A DNA stretch of 64,000 bases. Origin: Rhizophagus irregularis (lineage: Eukaryota). Below the pieces are notes generated by a model. That model was not told the origin of the DNA and searched no databases. It worked only from the letters and a program-made list of their open reading frames with translations. The DNA is taken from the NCBI RefSeq assembly GCF_026210795.1, contig NC_089432.1:62001-126000 (forward strand), read 5' to 3'. Shown here piece by piece: positions 890 through 53,359 of the stretch; the stretch's first letter is position 1; the number at the start of each line of letters is the position of its first letter. The translations under genes and the position numbers were made by a program.

Positions 890-2027
890 AGTTCGGCTTT
901 CGGGTGGGCTTCTGAAGTACAGAAACTCCAAAGATTCATAAGTATGAATACTTTGGAGTTTATTTTATTTTTTTTTAATACAAATGGTTACTAACTGTTC
1001 TTTTTTCTTTCTTTTTTTTTAGGTTCGGCCGTTCGGGTGGGCTTCCGAAGTACAGAAACTCCAAAGATTCGTAAGTACGAATACTTTGAAGTTTATTTTA
1101 TTTTTTTTTAATATGAACGGTTACTAACCGTTCTTTTTTCTTTCTTTTTTTAGGTTCGGCCGTTCGGGTGACTTCCGAAGAATGGAAAAAACTAAGTTTC
1201 GTAAGTTCAGAACTTGGTTTATTTTTTTTAATATTATGAACAGTTATTAACCGTTCTTTTTCTTTTATTTTTTATAGGTTCAGCGTCTCGGGTAGGGCTT
1301 CCGAGTTCCGAAGAACGAAAAAAACCAAGATTCGTAAGTATATACGAATCTTGGTTTTAATTTTTTTGTTTTTTTTAATTTTATTAATGAACGGTTACTA
1401 ATAACCATTCCTTTCTTTATTTTTTAGGTTCGGGTAGGCTTCTAGAGAATGAAAACCCAAAGATAAAGATTTGTAAGTACGAATCTTTTCTTTATAATTT
1501 TTTTTTTGTTTTTTCTTTATTACGGACAGTTACTAATAACCATTTTTTTCTTTATTTTTTAGGTTCGGGTGGGCTTCTGAAAAATGAAAACCAAAGGTAA
1601 AGATTCGTAAGTACGAATCTTTTCTTTATAATTTTTTTTTTTGTTTTTTCTTTATTATGAACGGTTACTAATAACCATTTTTTTCTTTATTTTTTAGGTT
1701 CGGGGTGGGTTCCTTAAAAAAGAAAAACAAAAACCCAAAGGTAAAGATTCGTAAGTACGAATCTTTACTTTTTTTTCTTTTTTTCTGTTTTTTTCTTTAT
1801 TATGAACGGTTACTAATAACCGTTCTTTTCTTTATTTTTTTAGGTGCGGTGGGCTTCCAAAAAACGAAAACCCAAAGATAAAGATTCGTAAGTACAAATC
1901 TTTACTTTATAATTTTTTTTTGTTTTTTCTTTATTACGAACGGTTACTAATAACTATTTTTTCATTTTTTTAGATTTGGGTGAGCTTCAAAAGAACGAAA
2001 ACCCAAAGGTAAAGATTCGTAAGTACA
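890..2027 (+). repeat. Tandem ~120-135-bp exon/intron-like units (array 1, left part)
   Basis: Repeated AAGATTC|GTAAGTACGAATCTT...GAACGGTTACTAATAACCGTTC...TTTTTAG|GTTCGGG units. Confidence 0.85.
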
Positions 2028-2487
2028 GTCGTCGGGCTGGATGTGGAAGGTGCAATCACCACCCACCTCCGGGTCTACGACCCGTCAAAGTACCTATATG
2101 GCCACTACGGGGTTCAGGAATCCCCATATATCCTCTACAATCCTCCACATAGATCCTCCACAAAAATATATAACAAAAAAAGATAAAATAAGGGAAAAGA
2201 GAGGAAAATAAAAGGGAATCAGAAGAGTGTGGAGGATGTGGAGGATGTGGAGGATATTTTAAAAATATCGGGAGAGGGATTCCCCCAGAAAAAAGTTTTG
2301 ATTTTACCCCCCCAGATCCTTCACATCCAGAACATCTTCCACATGTACAGGATTCCGTCCGATCATCTGTATAAGCTAATGAGATAGCAAACCAGGTAGA
2401 TTAACAGGTAAACCCCTAGAAGGTCTATAGACCAACCCCGTCCCGCCCCCATCAGAAAAAATAAGTAATTGAACAATGGGTATACCA
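2028..2487 (+). repeat. Left TIR of element A
   Basis: Reverse complement of 16695-17156; begins GTCGTCGGGCTGGATGTGG. Confidence 0.95.
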
Positions 2488-2497
2488 TAAGTAACCT

Positions 2498-2872
2498 ATA
2501 AGGACAGATAACATATATACCCCGCACGCAGTATCAGTAATCCCCGAACTTGTAGGCCATATCCTGAAACACATTCCAAGTAGCAATTTCGGGCCATATC
2601 TTTTAAAAGTCAGCCCAATCTGGAAAGCCGAAGCTAAACGAGTACTCTGGAAGCGGCATAAAAAAGCTGAGGAGGCATACGACAGGGCAGTAGAAAAGAA
2701 GGAAAAAGCAAATGATGCTCTTGGCCAATCATTGGATGAGGAGGGTATCCTCCGTGAACTTGAATGGGAGGCATATCAAAAGGCTTGTAAAGAGTTAACG
2801 GACACTAGAAAAGAGCTAACTATAGTAAAAGGAGCTCTTGAGCGGTTTGGATTTCAGATATATGTAGTTTGA
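2498..2872 (+). pseudogene. F-box-like plus coiled-coil ORF (no ATG; ATA at 2498)
   Basis: Open frame reads VIPELVGHILKHIPSSNFGPYLLKVSPIWKAEAKRVLW..., an F-box-like pattern; TGA at 2870-2872; absent from the ORF track. Confidence 0.5.
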
Positions 2873-3093
2873 AAAAAAGGAAGGGAAGATTTAGAGCAGT
2901 CGTAAAGGTTCGTGGTTTATAGTTTTTTTTTTTACCCCTAGAAGATAACCAGATATAACCGGAGGACCGCAGAATCGCAGGACCACAGGACTACAGGAGG
3001 ATAACCTGGTAGGAGTGCAGATCTTTGGAAAAAATATTCGGCAATTGAAGATTAGGTAACTATAAATTAGTACTCGATTTGATAGAACAAAAA

Positions 3094-5655
3094 ATGACTG
3101 CCCAAACTAGCACTCAAGCTCAAGTTATCCCCAAGTTTGGTGAACAGAAGAAGGCTTTTAGTATTGATGAGCTTAAACGGCTCATTAACGCTGCAAAGAA
3201 TATGAGGGATCTCAATCAAGCTAAAGGTTATCTTTGCAGTTACTTTATCCCCTGTTCCAACCCGCATGGAGTCTTCATGTGGCGGTCAGAAATTAAAAAC
3301 CTCGAGCACATCCCTGATAAAAATATTAGTAAACTTATCCGTCCAATTACCAAAGTCTTTTACACACAATCTGAACAAGGTCCTTCACAAAAGGTTGAAT
3401 TTAATATCAACAAATGGTTTATGATCGAATATAGTACTGTATGTGTAGCTACCTGTGACCCTCAAAAATCCCGTATCTTTAAACTAGGTGGCCAACTTTA
3501 TCTCAATATCTTTCCAGAATTCCTCCATATCCTGCGTCCGATATCCACTTTTGAATCTACAACCTACCTCGCGGTTAAATTTATCTTCTCTCACATTCAG
3601 GATATCTGGTGTTCAGGCGATTGGAATCTTACTGAGTATATCATAAAGTGGTTGGCCGGTGTGGCAGCTAAAAGGAAAATGTATTCGATTCTCTACCTGA
3701 AATCTGGACAGGGTTGGGGTAAGAGTATTATAACAGATTTCATTCAACGTAGTGTCTTAGGTACTCAACTTGTTTATAAGACCAGCGATCCTCAAACGAT
3801 TCTTGGAAGTTTCAATGGGCAATTACAAGGTAAGGTTCTTCTCCTCCTCGAGGAAATGCCTACAGAAAAAAGCCAGTGGAATAATCTGTATCGATCGTTG
3901 AAGGATAAGGTAACAGGTGACATAATGGAAATCCATGAAAAATACAAGACGCCAACACATTACAAAAACTTTATATCCACCATTGTACTCACTAATGAAA
4001 ATGCTCTCAGAGTGGAGAATGACGATAGGTGCACAGTGTTCTTGGATGTGTCACCATCCCGCAAGGGAGACCTCAACTACTTTAAGAAACTCAGTGACGC
4101 TATGAAATATCCAGGCGCCAGTGAGGCATTCTATGCTTACTTGAGAGCCATTGCAGACGCTTACCCGGACTTCAATGGGAATCCACCACCTATAACAATA
4201 TCTAAGTAGGATCACATCATATCAACTCTCCCACCCCTATTTCAATTCATAAAGGACACTTACCTCATAGTAAAAAATCATATAACCGACTTACCTGTTC
4301 AAGAATTTTATAGGGTATATACTTCATACTGTAAAACTCATTGCATTTCACCTCTATCAAAGATCAATGCATCCAGAATCCTATCAAATGAGCTAAGTAT
4401 AAAAAGTAAAAAAATACGTATAGGTAAAACAACACCACAAGTTTACAGTATATCTAGGGAGGATCTATACAAGAAGTTTCTTGGCAAAAACTGGATACAT
4501 GAAACAGATGAAATTGATATAGAAGGAATTGATATAGATACTCCTGAGAAGCCCACATCTGATCCAAATGCCTTGGTGAAGTTCTTGGCAAATATATATA
4601 ATCCAACTAGTAAATCGCAAGTAGATCAAGAGGAAGTGGAGCTAGTTGTTGAGAAACCTGTTGAAGAAAAACCTACTGAAGAGCAACCAGTTGCCAAAAA
4701 GGCTCCTCCACCAGTACCACCTAAACCTGATTGCTTGAAGGTAAAACCTGCACCTGTCATCAAAGAGGATCCTATTCCTGAGGAATCTCCAGCTCCCATA
4801 GAGTCAGATACTGATGAAATTATAGACAGTTTCTCAGACTGTTATCTATCTGATGAGGAACCCGATCAAGAAAATGAGCCGCCTGCTGAGGAACCTGCAT
4901 TTGAAGCTGATGATGACTACGACGTTTTAGATGACTTGCTATCTGACTCAGATCCTACAACTGCAGACCAAGTTCCTGAGCAACAACCCGAGTCTCCTGC
5001 AGAATCTTCTGCAAAATCTGAATCTCTCGCAGATTCCAAATCTTCTACAGAACCTGTAGTAGAACTGACTCTCAAAGAGCAACCTATCCCAGAACCCGAC
5101 ACAGAACTAGAAGTCGACCGGGATCCTGAACCAAAGGAAGGTACTCGAGCACACTGGGCTTGGCATGAAAGGCGCCGATGGGATCGTAAGCCATGGGTCA
5201 AGAATTCAAAGGACCAGGTCTTCAATGATCTCTACAATACAGGTAAGGATTTATGGGCTAAGTACTAAGACGCGTCAGACGAGTATGACTGGGAAATACT
5301 CGCGTTTGAAGTAGAGGAATGTCCCACAACACGTATTGAGGACAAGTACCAGTACTACTTTAGGGAGGTAGTAGACTACTTCAAGGACTGGATCGAATAT
5401 AATGGGAACTCACCTAAAACACCTAGCCGTAAAGAACTCGCAAATCTAATAAGAGTATACAAGGAGAATCGTGATGCCGAGATTATCCCTACTACCTCTG
5501 GTTATGAAACTATGAAGATGAATAAAGGTAAGGCACGAGAAATCCCAGAGGAACGTCCAAAAACTGATATGGAACGTGAATGGGAGGCCGCCAATGGAAT
5601 CATCGATGACTGGAACAAAGAGGATACTGAGGGCGCTATCAACGACATATTGTAA
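3094..5655 (+). pseudogene. SF3/D5-like helicase with winged-helix-like region and long acidic Pro-rich tail; two in-frame stops
   Basis: Walker A SGQGWGKS, Walker B LLLEE, motif C IVLTNEN, DDR; frame continues through TAG 4207 and TAA 5266 into ORF 4573-5268 and on to TAA 5653. Confidence 0.85.
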
Positions 5656-5745
5656 GCGCTATTTCAGATTATTTCTTTTTTTTTTCATATATATATAGAA
5701 AGATATTATTTATAGTTGAAGACAAATCATATACAGTACATAAAA

Positions 5746-7673
5746 ATGCAATACTCAAGAATCGCCCGCACTTTACCAATACGACCTGACATCAAGGAAC
5801 TTCAGTATTCCGGTGCCCGCTTTTCCAGAGGAGCTATCGCCAGACTCTGGTCAGACTCTCCAGCGCGCACGAGATAGAAAGCTTCCAGATCCTACTTCCC
5901 TATGAAAACTGGAAACCGTGGATGGACATCAGTAAACCAACCAGCCAGCCTCTTCTCACTCTTGGACCACTACGATGAAGCACAACTACCAGATGATGCA
6001 GATCCTGATTACTTTGAACGATTCATAATTTATGTGAGAGATGCTCCACCGGTTGCAGGGGATGCAATGGGGAGCTAAATGATTGCCTGTATGAATGCCT
6101 GAAGCATATCTATGGTATATTCTCTAAAATACCCGTACTATAAAAAAGCCTGAATATATCAAAAAGGCATTAGGTCTCAATCGTGATGCTCAGTTCCAGT
6201 CTCATATATGGATAAGGTTGAACAACTTGCAGGAAGCCTTGCACTTAATATTGTAGGGGATTCCACTCGAATTTCCAAGAGCAAATCTGACAGACATGCA
6301 ACCCTCATCCTGTCCGAGGCCACTACTCTCTTGCACTGAATCCTGGAAGACTTCACCCCTAGTAAATTAGATAGAAAACAAAAGTCTCCCTTTGTTTATC
6401 GTGAAGATGGGGTTAATAATGTAGTAACAATATACAATGGTAAGACAGTTAAGTCTCTTACAGTTGGACAGTTTCAGAAAGGTAAGAAGCTCTGATAGTT
6501 ACTCCTTCATCCTATTGAGAAGAATCGTAAAACTGGAATATATGAAACACTTGAGGAAACATACCAGAGGATCCATGAAGAGCGGGATTCCTTTCTACAG
6601 GCTACAAAGAAGTTCGGCTCCAGGAATCGACTTATCTTATCACAACTGGTCGTACAAGAGAACTGCTCTCTGGCTTTTTGAACGGTTTAGTGTAGGAGTT
6701 CCAGCTAATGATCCTCTTGATCCAGTCGAAGCAGAGTGGATAAGTGATGCGAATGATGGGAGGTCTTATCTGGGCAGATAATGAATGGAAGGGCTATGGA
6801 AGACAATACGACGTGACAAGTTTGTATCCAAGTATTCGGCAATCGAATGCTAACTTTCCAATCCAACAAGGTAAGTTTCAAATACTCAAAGACTTTGTAG
6901 ACCACAGAGGTTATGCCTTGTATGGATTATTTCGTGCTAAGGTAAGTGGTAATGACATTCTCTTCCGACAGAATAAGAGGGGAGTTTATACATTCATTGA
7001 CTTACAACAAGCAAAGAAACTTGGTCTTGATATACAGTTAATCCAGGATGGAAAGCCAAATGCCTTGATATATGACAGAGAAGCAAGAATTCCTGGGACT
7101 GTAATATTTGGTGAGTATGTTCACTTTCTCTTCAATATAAAGAACCAGGGTGGCGTGGCTGGTCGTGTTGCAAAGAGAGTTCTCAATACATTATGGGGAG
7201 CACTCTGCCAGGAGGAAACGCAATTACAAGACACTCACCACAGATCAAACAGATCCATTCAAGTTTCCGGAAGGCCACACACTTGACTCCATCATACCAG
7301 TAGGATCTGACCAGTGGCGATTCCAATTCACAAACCCAGGTAGTCCCTTCAAGCGAGAAATCCTCCCGGATTGCTCCATTCTTATTAAGACACATGGACG
7401 GAAGATGACTTCAGAGTTATTAGAACCATATAGGATAAAGGACGACGCATCCATACAGATGGATTTATTCTAGAGTAACAGCCGAGTAGTCCTACACTTA
7501 TCACTTGTCCAGAAAATGCATACAAAGCATTGAAAGCTCTCAAGTTTGAAACCGCAGGATACTGCCATGTAAAAAATGCAAACAAGGTTATCTGGACAGC
7601 GATTGGCAAGAATGCAGTTGGATTTACAGTAGGTATATATATTTTTTCTGCTTCGAATGTAAAGTCAATTTGA
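5746..7673 (+). pseudogene. Short protein-primed family B DNA polymerase, frameshifted
   Basis: MGG..YDVTSLYPS (motif A), AKRVLNTLWG (motif B), RIHTDGFI at 7446-7469 (motif C); N-terminal NDCLYECL...HYSL; several frameshifts. Confidence 0.85.
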
Positions 7674-7716
7674 AGATTCCTATTTATTACAAAGTACAAA
7701 AAAGTATAAGGAATCA

Positions 7717-8185
7717 TGTCAACATATACCGAATTAGCAAGCATTATTAACCGCACTGACAGCATTAGTGATGAAGTTATTTATGATGCATCACGCAATC
7801 AGTTCACCATTGTCTCGACGAAACTGTCCTCAAGATTATCCGTGCATTAAAAGACACTATAGTAGTCGCATTAGTATCTGGGTTTAGCAAAACCAGCTAC
7901 CTTGTCCAGGATCATGTGAAGTATATCAAGAGAATCCAGACAGCAAAGTCTCCTGTATCATATGTGAAGTTCGTGGCCAGAAAACTCTTCCCAGATAATG
8001 CAGCATATACTGCTAAGATAGCAAAGATTCGTGAATCATACAAGAATAAACAAGCTCTTTTAGACAAACTTGAGGCCCTCTTCGAGTTGTATTATAATGT
8101 AACTAAGGACTCATTAACAGGTCCCCCAAAGCGAGCTGTCACTATGAATGAGGCTGAGAAAACCTTAGCAGAACTTCTTGTATAA
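7717..8185 (+). pseudogene. Small helical protein similar to element B ORF 43649-44026; one frameshift
   Basis: KYIKRIQTAKSPVSYVKFVARKLFPDNAAY...LLDKLEALFELYYNVTKD aligns by eye with QRIIKLRQAEEPENFVLETAQSILPNETKY...LLSAINKLYRLYYELAKD. Confidence 0.65.
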
Positions 8186-8279
8186 GCGGCTCCCCGTACG
8201 AATTTAGTTTATATTTTTTATCCATTTGTAATGGGCATACAGTAATTGAAGATGGCTATAGTATAAGTAACATAACATC

Positions 8280-8700
8280 ATGTTGGACCGATTACCAGTA
8301 GAAATAGTCGAACGCATTGTTGCAAAGATCCCAGATACTGACCTTATTGCAGCGAAAGTAAAGTAGATAGATGTGTGGTGGCGGGGAGGTTCGTCAAGAA
8401 ATATAAGAGATGGAAAAATTACGCTACTACAATTGGGCATGTCCAAGCTCTTGGAAAGCCGTTTGAAAAAAGGAATATTGACTGGATATCATTTGAAGAT
8501 GTAAACGACTTCTATAAAAGATGGATAGACCGCCTCACCGAGGATCAGCTTTATATTATGGAGAAAATGCTTAGGAATGGGATGGTTGTGGACACCCCCA
8601 GGAAAGGGAAACCATAGAGCATGCATTAAGTGAACATAGATGGGGAGGCGATCCTTGGAGATTGGACTGGAAGTGGAATGATTGGACTCAACAGGAGTAA
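8280..8700 (+). pseudogene. F-box-like protein, frameshifted
   Basis: ATG 8280 gives MLDRLPVEIVERIVAKIPDTDLIAA.KV..VWW, an F-box pattern; continues into ORF 8375-8617; 3' end approximate. Confidence 0.6.
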
Positions 8701-9017
8701 GCATTTTGTACTTGACTTTCGTAGGAATTACCCTGCAGAGTCATATTTTTTAGATCCGGCCGGCATTACCGCGTAATCCCGAATTACCGAAAAAGGAAAT
8801 TTATGTTACACAAGGTTCCAAACGCATTCTTACCAAATCGATTTTTTGTGGAACGGGTATCGCCCAAAAAGGAAATGATCTACGTACCGCATGAAATCAC
8901 GTGACACTCTACACATTTGTTCAGGGTATCACGTGACATGAACTCCGTTCACATTTTCTGTAATATAATCCATAGTTTTTCCATGAATGCATTCTAGGCC
9001 AATAACCCAGTAACTTA

Positions 9018-9170
9018 TTTATCAGGTATCCTTGCATTTTTTCGACAAGGATTGATGACCATGTAACCTTATCATCAGGTATCCTTGCATTTTTTATAAG
9101 GACTGATGACCATGTAACCTCATCATCAGGTATTCTTGTATTTTTTGATAAGGACTGATGACCATGTCAC
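9018..9170. repeat. Three ~54-bp tandem repeats upstream of ORF 9230
   Basis: ATCAGGTATCCTTGCATTTTT...AAGGA(C/T)TGATGACCATGT x3. Confidence 0.85.
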
Positions 9171-9229
9171 TTGGTTATTATAAATTGAAGAAAACTATTA
9201 GGTATGTAGACACATACAGAAAAAAAGAC

Positions 9230-9811
9230 ATGTCTTACCCTTATATAGCTAACCCTATAACTGGACGTCCAATTATTATCGGTGGAGATACCTTTAATCG
9301 AATAGTTATGGAATCCCATGATTATATTGATGGAAGGCTTGTCCGTAGACAAACTGTACCTCCACCTGAAGAGCAACCTGTATATTTAAATACAGATACA
9401 GGACGTTATGTTCGACGTGGTACTAGAACATATCATAGACTGATTGAGAGTGACTATGAGGTAGTTGAGGATTACTACCTTGTCCATTATGAAGAAGAGG
9501 CGCTTATAGAGGAAATCATCAATGAAACACGCTATAATGAGGAAAATCTTGATGGGCAGCGGTTAACTTTCAATGATATATAACAAATCAGGGCCGCTAT
9601 TCAGGCTGACCAAGATGAATATGATGATTTTATCTTACAGCAAGATACGACTAACGGGACACCTTCCTCTGGTCCTTCCGGTCATCCACGAACTTTGGAG
9701 GACCATACCCCGAGACTTGCAGAGCTTAATATTGAGTTGTGTAGGGAATGTCTCATGCCTGTAAGTCCAAGTGACTTAACGGACAAGTTGTGCAAAGACT
9801 GCTCCGAATAG
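9230..9811 (+). pseudogene. Protein with two NPxTGR-type (2-cysteine-adaptor-like) repeats and a C-terminal CxxC...CxxC
   Basis: IANPITGRPIIIGGDTFNRI and LNTDTGRYVRRGTRTYHRL; after TAA 9581 and a frameshift reads LCRECL...LCKDCSE*. Confidence 0.55.
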
Positions 9812-9856
9812 TTACTTAATTTTGAATAATTCTTTTTTACATAAAGAAAGATAGCC

Positions 9857-10276
9857 ATGTCAACATCAATTGTAATAAACCAGTGCCAAAACTATGGAGT
9901 AATCACTCCAAAAACAGCACATAGAGGATTATCCAGTGTATTATACAGACAGATTATAAAGAAGATTAGTGATGAGAATGACCCTCTACAAGCCTTGGGA
10001 CTTGCTAGGGATAAGTTAGTTTAGATCATTCGTCGGGCAAGTAATGTGGACTTTACACAATTGTTTACACAAAGACTGGATATGAAAATTATGGATGGAG
10101 AGCCATATGAAGATATTAGGAAGTGGCTTCTCGAACAGTTTATAGCTATAGGTTGTGATAGTGGAGAAATTGCCTTATATCAATTTCTAAGGGATACATA
10201 TCCAGATAATATCGACGAGCCTTTCAATACATTCTATGAGAACTATGTAAATCATATAAGTAATTCAACGACTTAA
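9857..10276 (+). pseudogene. Hypothetical protein with one internal stop
   Basis: ATG 9857 is in frame with ORF 10046-10276; internal TAG near 10022. Confidence 0.45.
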
Positions 10277-10403
10277 GAACTTCGCTTAACGTCGTGCCAG
10301 GAGGAAATAGGGTTGAAGGCTAAGATGTTAAGGATTGACTTTGAAGGCCGTAAAAAAAGTGCTATGATTCTTAGAGCTTCTGCAGACGAATTATTTGATA
10401 TTC

Positions 10404-10826
10404 TCACAAGATACTATTAATCCCTACTTGTAATGCTCGACGGTCCATGTGGCTCTTAGAAAAGATCTGTAGAAGGACTTCAATACCTTCTATTATTTTT
10501 TTATTATCCAGAGGGCGACTAGACTTCAGGGCTTCATATCGGGAGAATAACTCCTTCACATTCTCAGTTTTCAGAGTTTCAGTCTTTGCAGTCCTACCCT
10601 GTACTTTTGCTAAGAAGTCCTGAAAGTCAGCTCCTAGGGTTTTACCAGACAGTCCATAAGCTTCCCGAAAGACAAATTTAATCCAGGTATCTGTATTCTT
10701 GGCTAAGACACCAGGTACAAGTAAATGTTGACGCTCTTTAGGGGATGGAAATACCCAAGCAAATTCAATCAAGTGTCCACCTTTTTTTGCTTCAGATACA
10801 CTTTCTGGCCAGGGGTAGGGACCCAA
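10404..10826 (-). CDS. Hypothetical protein downstream of the ATPase; probably disrupted
   Basis: 140-aa ORF inside element A, co-oriented with the ATPase, preceded by 10-bp tandem repeats. Confidence 0.4.
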   Translation of the reverse strand: MGPYPWPESVSEAKKGGHLIEFAWVFPSPKERQHLLVPGVLAKNTDTWIKFVFREAYGLSGKTLGADFQDFLAKVQGRTAKTETLKTENVKELFSRYEALKSSRPLDNKKIIEGIEVLLQIFSKSHMDRRALQVGINSIL

Positions 10827-10829
10827 ACT

Positions 10830-10955
10830 TGGATCGAACTGCGATTGAACTGGGTTCAGACTGAGATCGAACTGGGTTCAAACTTGGATCAAACTGAGAT
10901 TGAACTGAGATTGAACTAAGATTGAACTGAGATTGCTCTGTGATCGAACTGAGAC
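10830..10955. repeat. 10-bp tandem repeat (GATTGAACTG-like)
   Basis: About 12 degenerate copies of GAT(C/T)GAACTG(A/G). Confidence 0.8.
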
Positions 10956-11636
10956 TAGTATCCCATCTTCTTTCGAATGGACGGTGGATCACTTTTTAGA
11001 CCGTCCCCAAGATCAAACACTACAAATTCACGTTGCAAAGTAAGATCATCAATTACTGGTGCTAATGACTCTGATTCTTCTGTATATAGGCGAATGATTC
11101 TCTTAGTATCTGTAAGGCTCCCATGACCTCCATGCAGTGAGATGTAGTTAACATTTTCTCGAATAGCCTTAGGAATGGCAAAGAATCTTTGAGCTACATA
11201 AATACATAAAATATTTTTGTGTCGTCCATGTGTAAAGTAACCAGTGATGAGATCCTGGATTTTTTTAGGTGCATCCATCAGATTCTCGAAGATTACCACA
11301 GTAGCTTGAGTAGGGTCAAAGGAGTCAATCTCTGGAATCTCACTATGGGTTACTGCAGTGAATGGGATCTTCTCCTCTTCGAAAAAATCAGCGTACAACT
11401 GCCTACTTTGGCTCGTCAAGATATCTGCCAACTAAAAGTACTGCATCACATAGTACATACCGATTACCATCCTCCTTTGCCTTCTTGTCACCCATTAACA
11501 AGTTAATGATCATAGTTGTCTTACCTGAGTCTGAGCTACCTGCTACGGCTAATCGAAAGGGCCATGATGGAGCAAACTCATTGCCTTGTCTTGAGTCAGT
11601 CGTGTACTCGTCCAAATTGTATACATAAAGATCCAT
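10955..11636 (-). pseudogene. A32/FtsK-HerA-like DNA packaging ATPase; stop plus frameshift near 11400
   Basis: Walker A AGSSDSGKTT, Walker B VVIFEN(L), FTHGRHKNI, YVAQRFFAIPKAIREN. Confidence 0.88.
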
Positions 11637-11667
11637 TTGAATTTTATTCTTACTTAGTTTAAATACT

Positions 11668-14435
11668 ATGTCGACATCAACACCAATTCCAGTTTATACT
11701 CCTTCAGAACCTACTGGACCGCCTCCTGCACACTTGGCTAATGAAGAAGACGATGATGAATTAGTTAGAATACTAAAGGCTCATGCAAATTTATTGACTA
11801 CCAGGGGTCGTTTAACTGTTGATTCAGAGATACAGGAGGCAAATAATCAAATCAAACATATTATTAATATATTAATGTATCGCTGTAAAGCAAAACATGA
11901 AGAACTTGGTATTACAAAAGATTTGTTAGTTTTTGCACAAGGTAAGATAAATGCATTTGATGAAACGTTTACTAATTTAGAACGTCAATTAGTTATTATA
12001 CGTGCTGCCAATGATAATTTCATAGAAGAAAACCATAACCTGCAAAGAGATTATGATACTATGGTAGAGCTTCGTCGACGGGCTATAGGTGAACGTAATC
12101 AGGCACGATATGAACGTAATGTATTACAAGCAGATTATACTCAAGCAGTAATGGATCGTAATGAGACTCAAAATGCTGTGAATCGTGGTAATATCCTTCT
12201 AAATCATTGGCGGCTAAGGCTACTCGGACTGGGGGACAACTTGTATTGGCTAATGCGCAACTTGGACAGGTTAATGCACAGCTAGCACATGCTAATAATA
12301 GGGTGCGTTTTGGAATTCAGACATTAGGGAGACTTAGGAATAGACTTTTCCAACAGATAGCTGCTCTTAGAATTCAGGTACAATGGTTTCGAATTAGACA
12401 ATTGAACCCTCCTCCACCTCTTTTAAACAATCCACTAGAGACAATATGGCTACCACTGCGATAGGATTGCCGATTTTTGAGGGTAAAGCTACTGATGATA
12501 TTGATACATTTGTTAGGCTTTATATGGGTTATCTTGATACTATTAATCTTAACCCATATGCTGCTGGAGGGCCACCAGAGTTTTGGAAAAGAGCTATGGG
12601 TATACTTAAAAGCTGCATGGCCGGTGAAGCAGCTGAATGGTTTGATCGAGAAATTACAGGAAAAAATTGGGAACTTTCTGGTATCACTTCAGCTGGTGGA
12701 GCTAATTTAGCTGCTTTTGTAGCATTAGTGATACCAGAAGGTGTAGGAGGACCGAATGTAGGTACCTATGTAAATGGGTCTGAAGCACAAATCTATTCAA
12801 GAGATCCAGTTAATGCATTAGTAACTATTAGAGCAGCATTTATTCCTACTCATGATTTAATGGGTGGAGATGAAGCTTGGAAAAGAGCTGGTGCTCGTCC
12901 CACGGCAGATAGAGCTGCTCCGGCTACTGCAGATGCTGGTGTTGCTGTTAATAATAATCATCCTATAGTTTTTCCAGGTATTAAACCTAATCAGGCGCTT
13001 TATTGGCTTAGAACACAATTTCCAACTGTTTTAGATGAAAAGAAACGTATCCGTTTTAACAGTCTTTACCAGGAAAATGAGCCAGTTGATGCATTTTATA
13101 GAACTGTAAAGAGGGCTGGAAAATTACTAAGACTAACTGATGATCTTATTATCGACCAGTTCTTTAGAGGTCTTTCGGCTGATAATATTTTTGAAGCAGA
13201 AAGGTTTCACAATCTTAATCCTGATGACTTGGTTAAACATCTGAGAAATTTAGAACGGAGAAGGGCTGAAATGCGCTTGGGGTTACAAGATAGAAATCGG
13301 CGACTTCGAGCAGATTACAGTGATGTAACTCAACCTCCATTAGGAAAACAGGAACCTGTCGTACTGACATCAAAGTCATCTGGGGTTACTCAAGAACAAT
13401 TACAAGAGTTGCTTAAGGCTCAGGCTGAAGAACTTACCAAGAATTTTCAGGTGCAATTTAAACAATTACAGGCTCGGCCAGTTTGTAATCCACCAGTCTA
13501 TAGACAGCAGATTAAACCTTTTCGACAAAAACCATAGAGACGTGTTATTCAGGATCATCAGGATCCTGATTGGGATGATGGTTATGTAGAACCTGATGTT
13601 GGTGATGACCCTGATGCTCCTGAGTGGACTTTGGATGATCATCAACATGCTATTGATCTTATTATGGGATATAAACGTGGGACGTCTAAAATACTTACAA
13701 ATCAACTTCAGAAGGCTAAAGATAGACGTGATGATCTGGATTTGGCCCGAGCAATGAGAAACCTCGATCTTAACGATGATGCTATGGACATTGATACTGT
13801 GAGTTTTGGTTAAAGATGGTCATCAGTCCTAAAAGACCACGATCTCGCGGTCCTACACCTTAAAAAGACGGACCGGTCCGTCTTGATGTAGTACCGTGGT
13901 CTTTCGGTCCTGTAACACGTACAATAAGACCGACGGTCTTTTTAAGGACTGCAGTCTTTTTAAGACCGATCAGTCTTTTTTCCTTTTTCTGCAAATAAAA
14001 AATTTTCTATTACTTTACTAGGAACAGTCTTCCTTTATAAATGAACACTAATTGTATAAATTTATAGGAACCATTCCAGACGTATATTATAAGCAAATAA
14101 CATGTATAAAGACGGATTTACTATACTTTATTAACGTTAATTTTCTTTTTTTCCTTGGAGACAGGGAGACAGTCTTTTCTAAAAGTTTCAATATGCATGT
14201 AATAACTTTTATATAAAGACCGATACAAAGACCAGGCCAGTCTCAGGACCGGTCCTACTGCGCCAAGAAAAAATGAAAGACCGCGGTCCGGTCCTACAAG
14301 TCCTGGGACCGACCGGTCCAGAACCGAGTAGGACCTGTAGGACCGATGACCATCTTTAGTTTTGGTGAAAAGGTAGAATTGAGAGAAAAAGATGGTGATG
14401 TCTATATGGTTCGTGTTAGGTCAAAAAAAAAGTAG
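11668..14435 (+). pseudogene. gag: Gag-like polyprotein (coiled coil + retrotransposon capsid-like domain), with two frameshifts, a stop and a MITE insertion
   Basis: LPIFEG..DDIDTF, MAGEAAEWF, MHR-like LYQENEPVDAFYRTV...IIDQFFRGL, AMDID; frame resumes after the MITE (FG/EKVEL...RSKKK*). Confidence 0.8.
13811..14358. mobile_element. hAT-like MITE inserted in the element A gag
   Basis: TIR TAAAGATGGTCATC(A/G)GTCCT; exact 8-bp TSD GTTTTGGT (13803-13810, 14359-14366); GGACC/GGTCC subterminal repeats. Confidence 0.92.
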
Positions 14436-15172
14436 GTTCGAGTATCTCAAAACTTCTTAAGTCGTCTCCAAATAAGACAGCAGTTAGCTCTTCTAGTGTA
14501 CCCTTGAAAGGCAAAGCAACTTCTGTTAAGATTCCTGTAAAAGTTACTGGTAGTAAGTCTACACCTGCAAAAGCTGTTACTAAGAATGACTTATTAAGCC
14601 TGTTAAGGTCTGCAGACTTTAGGAAATTACTCTGTGAGATTCTTCAGGAGGAGATGATGTCTGCTAGAAAAGTCACAGAGATTTCAGATGACTTAGCTGA
14701 GGAGGAACAAGAAGAGGATATCAGGGAATACGATCCTATGGATATTGATATAGCTCGTTTGGAGAATACTAAAGATCTTTTAGCACTGGATGGAGAGGTT
14801 AATGGGATAGCAATTCAGTGTTTAGCAGACACTTGTGCTAATGCGTCTTTTATTCAGAGAGAAGCTGCTGAGGAATTAGGGTTGAATATCGACAAGAGTA
14901 TTACATACAACATATCTGGTGCTCCAGGAACAGGTAGGACATTCGGCATGGTAAAGGGAGTGTCAATCAAACTTACCCCTGATTATGCTATCACTGAGGA
15001 TCTTGCAGTTTTAGATGGATACAAGCATAGGGAAATTGGATTGAGCCGGACGTGTCTGAAACGTTACAATTATGATGTCCATGAATCACGTGAACATGTC
15101 GCCCTTACCTGTGATGGGAAGAATATTTTTATCCCGATAGTTCCTGATGTGAATAGAGAAGACAAAAAATAA
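14423..15172 (+). CDS. Retropepsin-like aspartic protease in the -1 frame of gag
   Basis: EVNGIAIQCLADTCANASFIQREAAEELGL, ISGAPG flap, IGLSRTCL; frame open from the A9 run at 14423. Confidence 0.8.
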   Translation, partial: KKKVGSSISKLLKSSPNKTAVSSSSVPLKGKATSVKIPVKVTGSKSTPAKAVTKNDLLSLLRSADFRKLLCEILQEEMMSARKVTEISDDLAEEEQEEDIREYDPMDIDIARLENTKDLLALDGEVNGIAIQCLADTCANASFIQREAAEELGLNIDKSITYNISGAPGTGRTFGMVKGVSIKLTPDYAITEDLAVLDGYKHREIGLSRTCLKRYNYDVHESREHVALTCDGKNIFIPIVPDVNREDKK

Positions 15173-15197
15173 GACCCTTTAATTCTTCTATTTTTTT

Positions 15198-16289
15198 TTA
15201 TTTCCAAAATTTGCGAATTAAGTCAGGGATATCTTCCTTCAATTGGTCAGCAGGTTCCCAAGTGGCTTCTGTATCTGGGTATCGCTCCCACTTAACCAAA
15301 TACTGGTCTTGACCTTTTCTAATGCGATGCCGAAGTATCTGCTCAGGTACAAATCTTTCAGGTTGTCCTCTTATCACAGAGTCAAGTGGAGGCTTTTCAT
15401 TAATAGGAACTACTTGCAATTCCTTTCGGGTATATGCACATTTGGATACACCTAATCGACCATGTGGTCCATTAAGGAGATATGTAGGAGGCTGTTCAGG
15501 TGAGAGTATCATTTTTTTGATTACACGAATGTTTGGGTTCCATCTTATGTCTCCTGTACAGAATTTTCCGTGAAGTTTGTTACCAAGTACAGAAATAGGT
15601 TCATCTAACTTGACTCTGACACGTGTTCCTTCAGAGAGGAGGTCTGTCTTTTTTGACACTTTGGGTGACCCTGTCGGAATGTCTGGGGGATTTCTCTGCT
15701 AGAGTTCATTTACTTTACTCACTATATTATGGAAATCTTCTGACCATTCCACGGATGTCACCCCAGTTTTCAACTCCTGTGCTACCATTCGTTTAAGAAG
15801 GGGTTCTTGGATGGCTTGGATAGCTCTTTCAGCATAAGATTGCTGTTTATGCCTTCCTGGTTCGCCGAACCTCATCATTACCCCTAGGCTGTTCAGGAAA
15901 AAATCACGTACCTGGTCGTTAGTGAATTCTGATCCGGAGTCCGTCTCCAGTCGGTGTGTTGGAGGCTTGATACGATTTCTTTTGTAGATTTTGACAAACC
16001 CGTTTAGAACTCTATTTGCAGTCTTATCCTTTAGGGGTTCTGCATCGACTCTCTTTCCTGCAACTTCCACCACTACGAGAAAATAGTGGAATCCTTTGGG
16101 GTCAACTGGCATCTCTGCAAGATCTGCCTGATGTGTTGCATTTGGTTTCCATACAATTACCTTTGGGCGTTCTGTTGACTTTTCCTTTAGGGGCTTTTTG
16201 TATAGGTTGTAATGCTCTTCACCTTTTAAAATTCGTACTGGTACTCTGGATAGACTGTAGTACTTGTAGTAATTCTCTAATTGTGACAT
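15198..16289 (-). pseudogene. Retroviral-type (rve) DDE integrase with C-terminal chromodomain; one in-frame TAG
   Basis: HQADL, ETDSGSEF, AERAIQ; ORFs 15699-16325 and 15198-15659 are in frame; chromodomain PEQILRHR...YLVKWERYPDTEATWEP. Confidence 0.92.
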
Positions 16290-16333
16290 ATTACGACAAA
16301 TTAAAGGAAAGATTTCAGACTTCAAATCTCAAG

Positions 16334-16654
16334 ATGTCACGATTTTACTGTCTAAAGTGCAAGAAGGAAACTGAGACTGCTAGTGAAATACAAGATATGA
16401 CTACAAATGGGCGTTATCGGCTGCATGGTGACTGCACAATTTGTGGTATGCATAAGAATACTTTTACTGGAATAGACTGGGTGATCAAGAAGAAGACTAA
16501 GGAGAAAAAGAAAGAAACCGCTGCTAAGAGACAGCAGACAGCTTACAATCGGCAATGCAAAAAACTTGGACAGAAAATCATAGATTCTGATGACGCGTGT
16601 AAACAGTGTATTGATAAATGCCTTAAAGAGGCAAAAAAGAGGAAGACGGATTAG
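16334..16654 (+). CDS. Small zinc-ribbon protein (DUF5679-like)
   Basis: MSRFYCLKCKKET...TTNGRYRLHGDCTICGMHK. Confidence 0.65.
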   Translation: MSRFYCLKCKKETETASEIQDMTTNGRYRLHGDCTICGMHKNTFTGIDWVIKKKTKEKKKETAAKRQQTAYNRQCKKLGQKIIDSDDACKQCIDKCLKEAKKRKTD

Positions 16655-16694
16655 TACTACCTTCTAAAAGTATTCTTTATCATCTGAATCATCT

Positions 16695-17156
16695 TGGTAT
16701 ACCCATTGTTCAATTACTTATTTTTTCTGATGGGGGCGGGACGGGGTTGGTCTATAGACCTTCTAGGGGTTTACCTGTTAATCTACCTGGTTTGCTATCT
16801 CATTAGCTTATACAGATGATCAGACGGAATCCTGTACATGTGGAAGATGTTCTGGATGTGAAGGATCTGGGGGGGTAAAATCAAAACTTTTTTCTGGGGG
16901 AATCCCTCTCCCGATATTTTTAAAATATCCTCCACATCCTCCACATCCTCCACACTCTTCTGATTCCCTCTTATTTTCCTCTCTTTTCCCTTATTTTATC
17001 TTTTTTTGTTATATATTTTTGTGGAGGATCTATGTGGAGGATTGTGGAGGATATATGGGGGATTCCTGAGCCCCGTAGGGGTCGCTATAGGTCTTGCGAC
17101 GGGTCGTAGACCCGGAGGTGAGTGGTGCTTGCACCTCCCACATCCAGCCCGACGAC
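16695..17156 (-). repeat. Right TIR of element A
   Basis: Reverse complement of 2028-2487; ends CCAGCCCGACGAC. Confidence 0.95.
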
Positions 17157-18030
17157 GTACAAATCTTTATAATTTTTTTTTTAATTTTATTAATGAACGG
17201 TTACTAATAACTGTTCTTTTCTTTTTTTATAGGTTCGGGTGGACTTCCAAAGAACGGAAAAAGGAGAACCTTTAAGATTCGTAAGTAATATACTTACGAA
17301 TCTTTTTTTTAATATTATGGAACAGTTACTAACTGTTCCTTTGATTTTTTTTTTATAGGTTCGGGTGGATTTCCGTCTTTCCAAGGAACGGAAAAAACTA
17401 AAGATTCAGTATGAATCTTTATTTTTTTATTTTTGTTTATTATTACGAACGGTTTCTAACCATTTTTTTCTTTTTTTTTTAGGTCAGTGTCTTCCGAAGA
17501 ATGGAAAAAACCAAGATTCGTAAATACGAATCTTGGTTTTATTTTTATTTTTTTTTATAATATTAACGAACGGTTACTGATAACTGTTCTTATTTTATTT
17601 TTTTAGCTCAGTAGGCTTCTGAAGAATAACGGAAAACTAAGATTCGTAAGTAAGTATGAATCTTGGTTCTTTTTTTTATTTTTTATTTTTATTTTTTATT
17701 ACTACGAACGGTTTACTAATAACTGTTCTTTTCTTTTTGTAGGTTTTGGAATCTTTAGAAAAGTGGAACCAAGATTCGTAAGTACGAATCTTGGTTTATT
17801 TTTTATTTTTTTTAATATTATTATAAACGGTTATTAATAACCGCTCTTTTTTTTTCTTTTTATAGGTTTGGTGTCTCAAGTGGATTCCGATAAACAGAAA
17901 AAACCAAAGATTCGTAAGTAGAATCTTGGGTTTTTTTGCTTTTTTTTAATATTATGGAATAGTTCTAACCGTTCTTTTCTTTTTTTTATAGTTTTGGTGG
18001 GTTTCCAAAAGATCAAGATTCATAAGTATA
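17157..18030 (+). repeat. Exon/intron-like tandem array 1, right part
   Basis: Same AAGATTCGTAAGT...ACTAA...TAG units as 890-2027. Confidence 0.85.
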
Positions 18031-19597
18031 TACGAATACATGAATTATGTGATTGTGGAATTGTAGATTAGCAATACTTATTTGTAATATGCATTTATAA
18101 ATAAAATTGTGATTTTATTGCGAATATCAAATAAAATGAGTTGTGGCTGAATATTAGTAAATAAATTTAGTACAAATTTGCAATATAAATTAAGTAATAT
18201 TCAGAAAACTATTCACCAAAATTTGCTATCTGAAATTGTTCTGAATGTTAACTGAATTTTGGCCAAAATTTCAAGCTGAACTTTAGGCGAGTGGCAGCGA
18301 ATTGCAGCTAAAAAATCTGCTAAAGTTTGACCAGCATTAGACCATAAATCAGCTTAAAATCGGCTGGCTGAATTTTGGCCGATTTGGACTATTTTGACCA
18401 GTGGCAAAAATTATCCAATGGATTTAAAGAACTTATAAGTCAATACCTGAAATTTGGGCAAAACGAGTTTAAAATATGATGAGAAATGATAATACTTCTG
18501 ACGAGAAGAAGTATTTAGGTATAATTTCTCATGATATAAGAATTCCTAATGATTGATATGTAGACTATTTTGGTCAAAGAATTCTAATTAGAGATGTACC
18601 TGTACATCATCAAAATGATCCTAGATTGCGTGGTTTGTATTATTATTATATTTTACATGACTGGGCAGAAAAGAAGAAAGACCAGTTATATGTTCGACTA
18701 ACTACTAGGCCTACATTAAATTTAAAATCTTGTATTAATTCTTCTGTACCCTTATCAAGAATAGAAAATTTTGATCTTGCGCAAGAAGATTTTGAAAATA
18801 ATAACAAGACAGAAATTACATATAAATTTCCTAAAATTGGTAGAAAATATACAAATAAATGTGAAAATAAAGAAGTTAATGTTAATGTAAATAATCAAAG
18901 CAGAAAAAAATCCAAAAATCATAGAGCTATTTTAGAAAATACAATTCAAAAGTGGATAGAGTAACAAGAAATTAAGTAAATAGAATTTGACAAAAGAAGA
19001 AAAGAAAAGAAAAAAGAGATCAGAGGGAAAATTCAGAATTGTTTACAATGAAACATCAATCAGATATAATGTTATTTGATTTATTAAATAATATTATAGA
19101 ATGTTTGAATTCTTCTCAAGGAAATTCAAATAATCAATCAGAAAAAAATTTACAAGGTATTTATTATTAATTCCGATGGTAATATTAAGTTTATTTTTAT
19201 GTTGCGTTCAAATTCAAATGTTTGTGTTATGTTCAAATCTGATTTTTGTGTCATATTTAAATTTTTGTCACATTTAAATTTTGATTTTTGTATCACGTAT
19301 AAATTCTAATTTTTATTTTACAATCAAAATTTGATTTTTTATATTAAATTCAATTCTAATTTTAATTCAATTTATAGATAATTTACCTTAATTTTCTTCA
19401 AATTTTATGTATTTGCAAAGAAATTTATAAACATCTTTACTATCTTTTGCACAATTGAATGATTCTGAATATAAAAGTGATAAAATGATAATTCACTTAA
19501 TAATAAATAATAATGTAATTCTTTTAATTGTTTTATGAAATAAATTGGAAAATATATATTTGTAACAATTTTTTTAATTCATTGATTTATTACTTAA

Positions 19598-20669
19598 TTT
19601 GTGATCCGCCTCAGAACCAGTGAAAGGTACTAATATATATCGGGGAACTATTATAGAGATTAATATTTCTTAAATAATTTTTTCGTGCAAATTTATCAAA
19701 TTTTTTTTAAATAAAAATGTTTGAAATGTTTAAAAAAATATAATTAAATTTTAATATAATCTTTGTAACTGTTGTATTTTTGGGCAAATTCAACATTTAT
19801 GCATTATTAAGGGTTAGGGCTGGAATCTGACATTGCTAAAGAAAAAATTTTTTAATTAATGGTGCTATGACAAAAATATTGTTATATTTAAATTTTTGTA
19901 ATTTTAAGCCATCATTTGATTAAAATCTTCAAATAATTTTAGCTCAATTCCAATTTCAAATTTAGTTATAATTTGTTATATTTGTAAATGTGTGATTTCT
20001 CACCATCTAGTGATCTTATAAGGATGAATTATAGCTCTTTGGAATCCTCTCATTATGATGAATTGAATGGTGGTAATTTCATATCTCTATCATCGATATA
20101 TAACTGGTTAATAATATGTTAATATTAAATAATTGCACATAATTGTTGTGTTATATATTGATTATAGAGATATAGAATTACCACCATTCAATTCATCATA
20201 ATGAGAGGATTCCAAAGAGCTATAATTCATCCTTATAGGATCACTAGATGGTGAGAAATCACATATTTACAAATATAACAAATTATAACTAAATTTGAAA
20301 TTGGAATTGAACTAAAATTATTTGAAGATTTTTAATCCAAAAGTAATGTAAATGATGGCTTAAATTACAAAAATTTAAATATAATAATATTTTTGTCATA
20401 GCACCATTAATTAAAAAATTTTTCTTTAGCAACGTCAGATTCCAGCTCCTAACCCTTAAAAATGCATAGATGTTGAATTTGCCCAAAGATACAACAGTTA
20501 CAAAGACTATATTAAAATTTAATTATATTTTTTAAACATTTCAAACATTTTTATTTAAAAAAATTTTGATAAATTTACACAAAAAAATTATTTAAGAAAT
20601 AATTGATTTACTATAGTAGTTCCCCGATATGTATTAGTACCTTTCACTAGTTCTGAGACGGATCACGAA
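19598..20669. mobile_element. ~1.07-kb foldback (palindromic) element flanked by TTAA
   Basis: Arms TTTGTGATCCGCCTCAGAACCAGTGAAAGGTACTAA and TTAGTACCTTTCACTAGTTCTGAGACGGATCACGAA, inverted over ~500 bp. Confidence 0.8.
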
Positions 20670-20699
20670 TTAATTATTATTTGTATTTAAATATCTTCT

Positions 20700-23102: not shown

Positions 23103-23150
23103 TGTAAACACACTGAAGTGGATGTCAAAGATGTTGACTGTAATATGTTA

Positions 23151-23674
23151 CACAGGTTGAAAAGTGAAAAATCAGGCACCAATCGGTCACCAATCAGGTA
23201 GCTGATTGGTGACTGATTGGTGACTGATTGGCATTTTCGCTAAATACCATCACCAATCAGGCAGTTTGCTAACTTTTGATCCAGTAATCAGAAAAGGATG
23301 AAATATAGCTCATTGGAATCGTCTCAACAAGACGAATCTAATGGTAGTAAAATCGCATTTATAGGATTAATACTTAATGAGAAATTAAGTAAAATATAAA
23401 AATAAAATGTATCATTTATATTTTATTTAATTTTTTATTAACTATTAATCTTAAAGATGCGATTTTACTACCATTAGATTCATCTTGTTGAGACGATTCC
23501 AATGAGCTATATTTCATTCTTTCTGATCACTGGATCAAAAGTTAGCAAACTGCCTGATTGGTGACGGTATTTGGCGAAAATGCCAATCAGTCACCAATCG
23601 GTCACCAATCAGATACCTGATTGGTGACCGATTAGTGACTGATTGATACCTGATTTTTCACTTTTTGACCTGTA
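23151..23674. mobile_element. Palindromic CAC-ended MITE, copy 1
   Basis: CACAGGT..AAAAGTGAAAAATCAGG arms inverted over the whole length; 3-bp TSD TTA; second copy at 62663-63199. Confidence 0.85.
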
Positions 23675-24674
23675 TTAGAAAGTAATTGGAATAAATGGAA
23701 TGATTTGGCATTCCATCGTGGTGGTTATTGGGCAAATTTTTAGGTAGATCATAACAGTCACCTTTGAATTTGAGGTCGCATTATGGTTTTTAACAATGAT
23801 GTGATCGTTTAGGTGACAGGTCGACTTGTTCTTTATGAAAAGTAGTCTTGTTTTATAATGCTCAATTCTTATATGTATTTGTTTATCTTATATTTGTAAG
23901 TTTATATATGTAAGTAAACGTGATTATAATAAGACATAATTGCATCTATAATAAAGTTCTAAAAAAAAATATATATATATATATTTAAAGAATAAATTAT
24001 TCACAAGATACTTGATCATTTTACTTATTTTAAATAAATTTTTAGTTAAATTCTTAAAATGCATATTAATAATAATAAAAACCTGTATATAGAATTAATA
24101 TAAAAATTTTTGATTTTACTAAACCTATATACTGTATGTATAGCTCAGAATCCTGTTATACTTACTGGATAGCAAATTTTATATTTATTTATCCATTCCT
24201 AGGAAATTTTGCAGTAAAAATTAACTATTGATTATACTATAATAAATGGATTTGAAAATTTGAGTAATTCAAAAAGATTTGCATTTTCTAAATGAGAAAC
24301 CTTTTCTTAATTTATTTGTAATTTCAATATTATTTTTCAAGTGTAATAGTAATAGTAAAGCTTTTTAAAATTTACATTTTTTTAAAATCTTTTAAAATAA
24401 AAAAAAAACCATTTAGAATTTAATAATAAAATATACTATATTTATACTCATGATATACTATAAATACTTTACTATTGTGTATAAACCTGGCTAATTGTAT
24501 AAGTTAATATTAATCTAATATCTGAACTCAGATTTATTACTAATTCAGAAAAAAGCAGTGATGCAACTAATGATATTTCCTTCATATTCGTATACGTCTA
24601 AGAACAAATCAGATAATTTTTTGCGATTGATTTATGAAAATTTTTTCCATATTTATTAGAACGCTAAAATAAGA

Positions 24675-43596: not shown

Positions 43597-43648
43597 TTTT
43601 ATTAAGTATAAATAAGTTAAATTAAAAAAAAGTTTACATGATATAAAA

Positions 43649-53190: not shown

Positions 53191-53359
53191 TTGTTAACGG
53201 ACATTATAGAAATTATATTCGACATGAATTTGTTTAATGTTATGAGAAAAAAAAATTACGAAAGCGGGACACTGCGTACTTTATTTAATAAAACATTGCC
53301 GAAAGTCGGCTTACAATACATAAAAATTGCGAATATATCGCTACATGATACAAAAATTA

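Follow-up and report, generated by a model that had tools for sequence, protein, structure and literature searches.

The Polintons of Rhizophagus irregularis, for which an earlier study reports no detectable capsid (PMC7805220), raise the question of what, if anything, occupies the capsid slot of such elements. We address it with a 64,000-nt stretch of the R. irregularis genome, hereafter the window (GCF_026210795.1, NC_089432.1 positions 62,001-126,000), in which element A lies at 2028-17156 and a second element, element B, at 42736-59715. Element A is a DNA element framed by inverted repeats at its termini (TIRs), and we consider it close to certain that it represents an architecture of mycorrhizal fungi in which a mavirus-type replicon and an A32-type packaging ATPase are joined to a retrotransposon-type Gag-protease. 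A capsid slot filled by Gag and a frameshifted protease would be a testable answer to the question.

A mavirus-type replicon and a Gag-protease module

Element A carries the following features (window coordinates; TSD, target-site duplication; ORF, open reading frame; pPolB, family B DNA polymerase with protein priming; TP, terminal protein; CA, capsid; MITE, miniature inverted-repeat transposable element).

2023..2027, +, left TSD, 5 bp, inside a satellite unit; empty unit at 1883
2028..2487, +, left TIR, starts GT
2495..2872, +, small ORF, F-box-like by pattern
3091..5658, +, superfamily 3 (SF3; D5-like) helicase, long acidic tail, two in-frame stops; DUF5906, E 3e-17
5746..7601, +, pPolB, mavirus-type by structure model, frameshifted, end approximate; segments 35-76% to intact homolog P0140
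within 5746..7601, +, pPolB parts: N-terminal TP-like domain, vOTU, putative exonuclease remnant, palm
7787..8185, +, small ORF; 48% to relative L014 (element B version 32% to L014)
8280..8617, +, second F-box-like ORF by pattern, broken, start approximate
9152..9811, +, 2C_adapt-like ORF, C-terminal Cys cluster, one in-frame stop; E 5e-4, below cut-off; homolog in L013
9926..10411, +, small ORF, broken; homologs in L013 and L008
10404..11636, -, A32-type packaging ATPase, ~170-aa C-terminal extension, frameshifted; Pox_A32 E 2e-11 on intact homolog P0338
11668..12464, +, coiled-coil ORF, one frameshift; stop 19 nt downstream of where the Gag ATG starts
12446..14435, +, Gag, two-domain CA fold by profile and fold, one in-frame stop, MITE insertion
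13811..14358, MITE in Gag, 548 bp, short TIRs, 8-bp TSD (13803-13810, 14359-14366)
14423..14432, +, A-run slippery site, register X XXY YYZ, immediately ahead of the Gag stop; -1 frameshift into the protease predicted
14420..15172, +, retropepsin-type aspartic protease in the -1 frame to Gag, own start not needed; Asp_protease_2, E 7e-8
15198..16289, -, rve integrase with C-terminal chromodomain, one in-frame stop, convergent on the protease (25-bp gap)
16334..16654, +, DUF5679 zinc-ribbon protein; E 1e-16
16695..17156, -, right TIR, ends AC
17157..17161, +, right TSD, 5 bp

Pfam recognized the DUF5906 helicase, DNA_pol_B_2, Asp_protease_2, rve, Chromo and DUF5679 in the window, with Pox_A32 below the cut-off, and the gene order is also backed by mapping of intact homologs onto the window. 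The order proposed in the initial annotation, from an F-box-like gene to a zinc ribbon, thus stands, except that the F-box-like label on 2495-2872 is a pattern assignment for which the Pfam scan gave no match. Its Gag-protease call is borne out by Pfam for the protease; the Gag of the window gave no Pfam match and is identified by profile and fold. The MITE in the 3' end of Gag, the -1 frame of the protease and the overlap of the coiled-coil ORF with the start of Gag are additions to that annotation.

Among 89 homologs of the polymerase, dozens are full length at 617-646 aa, and the shortness previously ascribed to this pPolB is real, being the norm of the family and not a product of decay. 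The structure model of the R. irregularis homolog P0140 (predicted local distance difference test [pLDDT] score of 88.5) has mavirus pPolB as by far its best match (E 4e-41, TM 0.69), is matched far worse by adintovirus PolBs, and resembles OTU proteases over residues 107-204 (Z up to 6.6) and, starting at residue 214, the phi29 pPolB fold (Z 19.9). All 43 aligned pPolBs share the Cys and His of the OTU, the Lys of motif B and the one Asp of motif C, and the motif A Asp is present in 42 of the 43. A TP-vOTU-palm polymerase of ~620 aa without a full exonuclease is characteristic of mavirus-like virophages and is what we find here, with length, the span of the alignment and the match to mavirus as the grounds for exonuclease loss, and position and an alpha/beta fold as those for TP. 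On this modelling, the element A pPolB is a full-length mavirus-type enzyme, and the replication and integration genes as a whole are of mavirus type and not of classical Polinton type. The separate SF3 helicase and rve integrase expected of a virophage are also present, the helicase being one open 797-codon frame in L001, a soil-metagenome relative described below.

A pPolB profile search of IMG/VR returned six contigs at 26-32% identity. All six carry a helicase and an integrase 34-41% identical to the fungal one; in four of them the helicase comes first, the integrase second and pPolB third. Three (L021, L023 and L024; Pfam Sputnik_MCP) encode a major capsid protein (MCP) of Sputnik type; the remaining three (L019, L020 and L022) combine a mavirus-type pPolB and integrase with a Pox_A32 ATPase and have no Pfam-recognized capsid. 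The nearest viral relatives of the element A pPolB are contigs of virophages or polinton-like viruses (PLVs). L019, L020 and L022 are candidate ancestors, the closest with a capsid, of the fungal elements. IMG/VR scans with the element A helicase and with the Gag alignment gave no match, and a search of solved-structure sequences with profiles of pPolB and of the ATPase gave nothing of use. In unrooted trees, fungal integrases and fungal polymerases each formed one clade (100/100) in the midst of the six viral contigs, without a resolved sister group. The ATPase has 247 homologs, with Walker A, Walker B and arginine motifs conserved in an alignment of 66; it is Pox_A32-like, and the PLV-like L020 comes closer to it than the contigs of virophages do. 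An Atlas search with its C-terminal extension gave no match.

Modelling suggests that Gag has the two-domain retroviral CA fold, with an insertion of ~100 aa in the N-terminal domain. Foldseek matches of the model were PEG10, MOAP1, Ty1 and retroviral CA, and in a structural search of 48,161 chains the first 32 of the 50 matches listed were without exception capsid proteins of retroviruses, of retrotransposons or of the Arc/PNMA kind (best Z 9.2, both CA domains or lobes covered). The Gag profile matches PEG10 CA (E 8e-4), and Retrotrans_gag is matched by 14/21 scanned Gag homologs, mostly below the cut-off. The nearest proteins, 94-100% identical, are from R. irregularis, and related Gags occur in Entrophospora and Diversispora.

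The Gag query also retrieved 18 soil-metagenome loci out of 152 pattern matches, representing about 11 lineages at 36-60% Gag identity. A terminal A-run followed by a stop within two codons is present in all 13 loci that include the Gag 3' end, the protease is in the -1 frame in the window and in 11/11 loci with a located protease, and of 20 near-full-length Gags chosen, 19 finish in KK or KR within 7 residues. This layout is that of a programmed -1 frameshift, which we predict from it. The protease motif is D-T/S-C/G/A, not always DTG, and its frame stops after ~240 codons; the convergent integrase is reached within 23-49 bp of the protease end.

The relatives keep the gene order, with frames mostly open. 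Wherever more than 900 bp upstream were available (8/8 loci), a minus-strand ATPase is followed by the coiled-coil ORF and then Gag, and in seven of eight loci with at least 200 bp behind the protease the convergent chromo-integrase follows, with the DUF5679 zinc ribbon next where the sequence allows. L001 also holds the helicase and pPolB in the order of the window, and L001, L002 and L010 overlap at 95-99.8%, have a 659-bp inverted repeat and tile a near-complete element. The internal genes thus travel together as the initial annotation assumed, with the same set and order in relatives. The ratio of nonsynonymous to synonymous substitution rates (dN/dS) was 0.10-0.43 for Gag in 6/8 pairs, 0.22-0.44 for the protease in 7/8 pairs with one saturated, and below 0.45 for the integrase in all measurable pairs, with distant pairs close to saturation. 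In L012 and in several Glomeromycotina proteins an element-A-type Gag is combined with a B-type protease, a hint that modules have been exchanged between the two types.

The stop of the coiled-coil ORF lies 19 nt past the Gag ATG start in the window and in 9/10 relatives with an upstream ORF, L005 being different. A second frameshift, from the coiled-coil ORF into Gag, was considered, as the register is -1 in the window and the same proportion of relatives (9/10), and was rejected because a slippery heptamer is present in the window only; splicing or reinitiation may couple the two instead. The ORF is possibly a matrix-like or fibre-like part, and an Atlas search with it gave unnamed low-recognition matches only. 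Among more distant homologs, as in element B, Gag has a coiled coil fused ahead of it.

Several genes expected of a retrotransposon or a virophage were sought without success. The long frames scanned in element A and its relatives contain no match to reverse transcriptase (RT), and neither RNase H nor a same-frame integrase was found; the protease frame ends and an opposite-strand integrase follows. Inside element A there is no direct repeat resembling a long terminal repeat (LTR). Sputnik_MCP models, sought for a virophage double-jelly-roll (DJR) capsid or penton, match no scanned frame of element A or its relatives, and the tiled relative L001/L002/L010 has no unassigned frame of jelly-roll-capsid size except the coiled-coil ORF. 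For the DJR MCP that most Polintons carry and some lack, the scans and the tiling, in which neither a Polinton or PLV MCP profile set nor folding of the small ORFs was used, gave no candidate frame. Pfam, which likewise failed to detect the probable protease ORFs on the virophage contigs, gave no window or relative ORF assigned as a cysteine maturation protease.

Boundaries, decay and genomic surroundings

The ~460-bp TIRs and GTACA duplication first reported for element A are confirmed: the repeats are 460-462 bp long with 448 identities in 463 columns (99% over the inner 366 nt), and GTACA stands on both flanks, where the insertion has split one ~135-bp satellite unit. The empty form is represented by the intact satellite unit at 1883, in which the pentamer occurs once, so that the TSD, measured in this one copy, is 5 bp. 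The GC content of element A is 38-44%, versus about 30% in the flanks.

The GT...AC termini proposed initially also hold. In four public runs, the contig depth summed over 2024-2027 falls to about 1/8 to 1/40 of the value for 2028-2031, and among the 30 left-hand loose-ended contigs listed, 14 end at 2028, 6 at 2027, 5 at 2024-2026 and 5 at 2031-2032. The contigs that end at 2028 have mixed flanks (consensus last base T, T, C or T, and not A). Judged from other copies, the terminus is thus GT, in preference to the alternative AGT start. The element A type is spread through the genome in high copy, with many insertion flanks, which shows repeated integration. One contig of run X1 spans the left junction of element A itself with no difference, and X1 may be the source run; all 30 bins of the region were covered in all four runs of the run comparison, and joints spanning element A in the run comparison fall in satellite and are uninformative.

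The evidence supports the view that this copy is a decayed member of a multi-gene virus-like element, as originally suggested: the helicase, Gag and integrase have in-frame stops, pPolB and the ATPase are frameshifted, and Gag is interrupted by the MITE, while in relatives this gene set has kept its order and mostly intact frames. At several of the disabling positions the sequence of other copies is not that of the window, and some 1-bp indels could be assembly errors. The intact element may be autonomous, judging by its gene content. The MITE is presumably hAT-like, given its TSD length. A 66-bp local repeat lies at 9002-9170, and ~100 bp at 8781-8886 are 76-80% like 29753-29859 and 61416-61509, constituting a small dispersed repeat, inserted or captured.

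Element B has 685-bp TIRs (680/689 identity), AG...CT ends and a 5-bp TSD. It encodes an rve integrase (24-30% identity with that of the element-A type), a long pPolB that has zinc fingers as well as an endonuclease VII domain, a coiled-coil/Gag-like frame with a weak CCHC match, and an aspartic protease behind an A-run; no helicase or ATPase was seen among the frames scanned. The Gag-like frame matched neither the element-A Gag profile nor Pfam, and its identification is therefore based on pattern, the weak CCHC match and the protease. These features suggest a second, long-pPolB lineage with the same Gag-protease module. Element B also contains two genes with a Crinkler N-terminal domain by Pfam, at 48845-50354 (+; E 2e-27) and 53360-53746 (-; E 2e-6), which are candidate effector cargo on a mobile element.

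Elsewhere in the window, AT-rich satellite arrays with 120-140-bp and 50-bp units occupy ~950-2027, 17157-18070, 32000-32600, 36700-37060, 41200-42470 and 60460-61130; element A lies inside one array and element B adjoins another. Long repeats of foldback or palindromic form and MITE-like elements occur at 19588-20679, 23141-23684, 61261-62445 and 62664-63200, with 23170-23522 and 62693-63046 being copies that are 93% identical. The element at 29419-37245, probably a DNA transposon, has AGATC-rich inverted ends (74-79%) and long minus-strand frames at 33541-36652, two of which were scanned without a Pfam match. A 437-codon frame at 24660-25973 (+) has an OTT_1508-like deaminase domain (E 4e-16), and a broken pogo/Tigger-like transposase is recognizable by sequence pattern at 39221-40616 (+).

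Possible roles of the Gag-protease module

We lean slightly towards the view that Gag is used in place of a jelly-roll capsid and packages the DNA of the element itself. The analysis establishes the gene set, the order that it keeps from lineage to lineage, the folds, the -1 register and the termini; the steps set out below are inferred from what is known of the related families. A module swap is the most economical account: the helicase, pPolB, integrase and ATPase of a mavirus/PLV-type ancestor would have been kept while its capsid and cysteine protease gave way to Gag and an aspartic protease. In its fullest form, on which we are evenly divided, the element would be a cross-realm virus: a Varidnaviria replicon that lost its jelly-roll capsid, took up an Ortervirales Gag-protease and uses its old ATPase to pump protein-primed linear DNA into a retrovirus-like shell, with element B as a second lineage. 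The element would be copied as linear double-stranded DNA (dsDNA) by protein priming, with the vOTU cutting the terminal protein off the polymerase and the helicase unwinding the template, as proposed for mavirus. As in retroviruses, Gag would be the excess product and Gag-protease would arise at a low level by -1 frameshifting; shells assembled from Gag would be matured by the protease, and the retained ATPase would load 14-15 kb of DNA into them. The integrase would insert new copies with a 5-bp duplication, the chromodomain might steer them to silent chromatin such as satellite, and particles could take the element from nucleus to nucleus within the coenocytic hypha, or across fusions of hyphae.

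Several points tell against this proposal. The element is known here from its genes, and not from particles, transcripts, proteins or free linear DNA. Loading is the weak link, because Gag shells, which normally assemble around RNA, have no known DNA portal, and A32/FtsK ATPases work with jelly-roll capsids. The Gag model is of modest confidence (mean pLDDT 69, predicted template modelling score 0.52), no Foldseek match reached E <= 0.001, Z scores of 8-9 are close to the noise level noted for helical folds, and the Gag of the element A lineage lacks a CCHC nucleocapsid motif. A search for a hairpin after the gag A-run found no stable stimulatory one, and the unrooted trees name no donor. All 18 relatives were found with a Gag query, so that Gag-less members of the family would have escaped; among them, L012 has no integrase behind the protease and resembles element B, and in L017 (150-1443) a truncated Gag directly abuts a minus-strand helicase fragment, in our interpretation the outcome of rearrangement or of internal deletion. 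For two Gag pairs that include L002, dN/dS is 0.82-0.86, the high L002/L003 value being traced to a locally frame-shifted stretch.

The more serious of the alternatives, though in our estimation unlikely, is that Gag-protease is a selected part of the element that does not package DNA, the ATPase having another role. Gag might be a cytoplasmic or nuclear scaffold, a carrier of element RNA or of an integrase complex, or a means of restricting competing Ty3/Gypsy elements, as truncated Ty1 Gag restricts competing elements. Synteny, frame and selection data fit such roles equally well, the missing CCHC motif is in keeping with them, and we know of no precedent for an ATPase that loads dsDNA into a Gag shell. 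One-for-one replacement of the capsid, however, predicts both a retained Gag-protease-ATPase block and the loss of jelly-roll genes, and both are observed: Gag, a frameshift-dosed protease of maturation type and an intact packaging-type ATPase are kept as a block across lineages, and the jelly-roll genes of the viral relatives are missing from the element A family. It is improbable that the element is instead a satellite of a helper giant virus, like mavirus and transpovirons, copied and packaged only during helper infection and with Gag-protease as an accessory. The mavirus-type replicon and the virophages among its nearest viral relatives would fit this, as would the giant endogenous viral region reported in R. 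irregularis, but hitch-hiking does not need the full Gag-protease-ATPase block, and high-copy spread with many insertion flanks indicates repeated integration, although this is not decisive.

Least probable by far, and largely refuted, is the idea that an LTR retrotransposon nested in an ordinary capsid-less Polinton has left Gag-protease, with or without the integrase, as its remnant. Insertion of retrotransposons into mavirus-like elements is on record (PMC8547959), and this copy of element A has itself received a MITE. Nesting is nevertheless contradicted by the lack of an internal LTR-like direct repeat and of an RT match in the long frames scanned, by an integrase that lies on the opposite strand and is of the virophage/PLV kind, and by the same position, orientation and frame offsets of the module in lineages as far apart as 36-60% Gag identity.

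If Gag shells do package protein-primed dsDNA, a capsid would have been swapped between the two largest groups of eukaryotic virus-like elements, and the result would be a categorically new kind of element; we know of no virion type in which a Gag shell holds such DNA. If the proposal also applies to element B, Gag would be the 'missing capsid' of Glomus Polintons. The mavirus-type polymerase, for its part, is extended to a large integrated family in fungi. Because the elements that have expanded recently in R. irregularis include Mavericks (PMC8647823), a particle stage could move DNA, including the Crinkler-domain cargo of element B, between nuclei and isolates of this largely clonal plant symbiont.

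Comparison with known systems

Mavirus and endogenous mavirus-like elements (EMALEs) share with element A a short TP-vOTU-palm pPolB without most of the exonuclease and without the first Asp of motif C, a separate SF3 helicase, an rve integrase, TIRs and a packaging ATPase, and the 5-bp TSD is within the 3-6 bp reported for EMALEs (PMC8547959). Krupovic et al. (10.1101/2024.03.18.585575) describe this pPolB architecture, with an exonuclease remnant and no first Asp, and the separate SF3 helicase as mavirus features, and call this polymerase type unique to mavirus. Element A differs from mavirus in its Gag and aspartic protease, in that no DJR capsid, penton or cysteine protease was found in it, and in its fungal host.

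Polintons/Mavericks have the consensus termini AG...CT. Like element A, they carry a pPolB, an rve integrase between TIRs of several hundred bp and an A32 ATPase in 15 kb, and the TSD of the one copy measured is within their 5-6 bp. Unlike them, element A has a pPolB of half the length, an SF3 helicase, Gag-protease and GT...AC ends; the long exonuclease-bearing Polinton pPolB is not that of its family (617-646 aa). The Glomus intraradices (R. irregularis) Polinton is reported to have no detectable MCP (PMC7805220; also PMC11296320), and it may be of either the element-A or the element-B type. Rhizophagus A32 ATPases are placed near Polinton ATPases in a 2026 preprint (10.64898/2026.06.19.733378).

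The gene mix of element A may have been glimpsed earlier, because Gag, retropepsin and S3H labels appear in the legend of Fig. 5 of Starrett et al. 2021 (PMC8502044) and Rhizophagus PolBs in that of Fig. 3; as given in the legend, the Fig. 5 labels fit element B better than element A, which has no nucleocapsid motif. The section text of that paper discusses no family, frameshift, mavirus ancestry or capsid replacement, and the first 4 million characters of its supplement contain no match. Our literature search, whose coverage lay outside subscription journals and Repbase, turned up no paper on the family, the frameshift or the mavirus link; further prior art comprises PMC4028283, PMC3671162, PMC4409740, PMC5751038 and 10.1101/697771.

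Ty3/Gypsy elements and retroviruses resemble element A in the CA fold, the retropepsin, the -1 gag/protease frameshift (predicted for element A), the chromodomain integrase and the 5-bp TSD. Element A differs from Ty3/Gypsy in its DNA replication genes, in that no RT, RNase H or LTR was found, and in its integrase, which is a separate opposite-strand gene of virophage type. Judged by its defining test, each known family compared excludes element A. Bidnaviruses, which have a single-stranded DNA genome without an integrase and a replacement capsid that is parvovirus-like, nevertheless provide a precedent for capsid swapping. As described by Krupovic et al. (10.1101/2024.03.18.585575), they are like element A in pairing a pPolB, in their case Polinton-derived, with an unrelated capsid protein that has taken the place of the DJR capsid.

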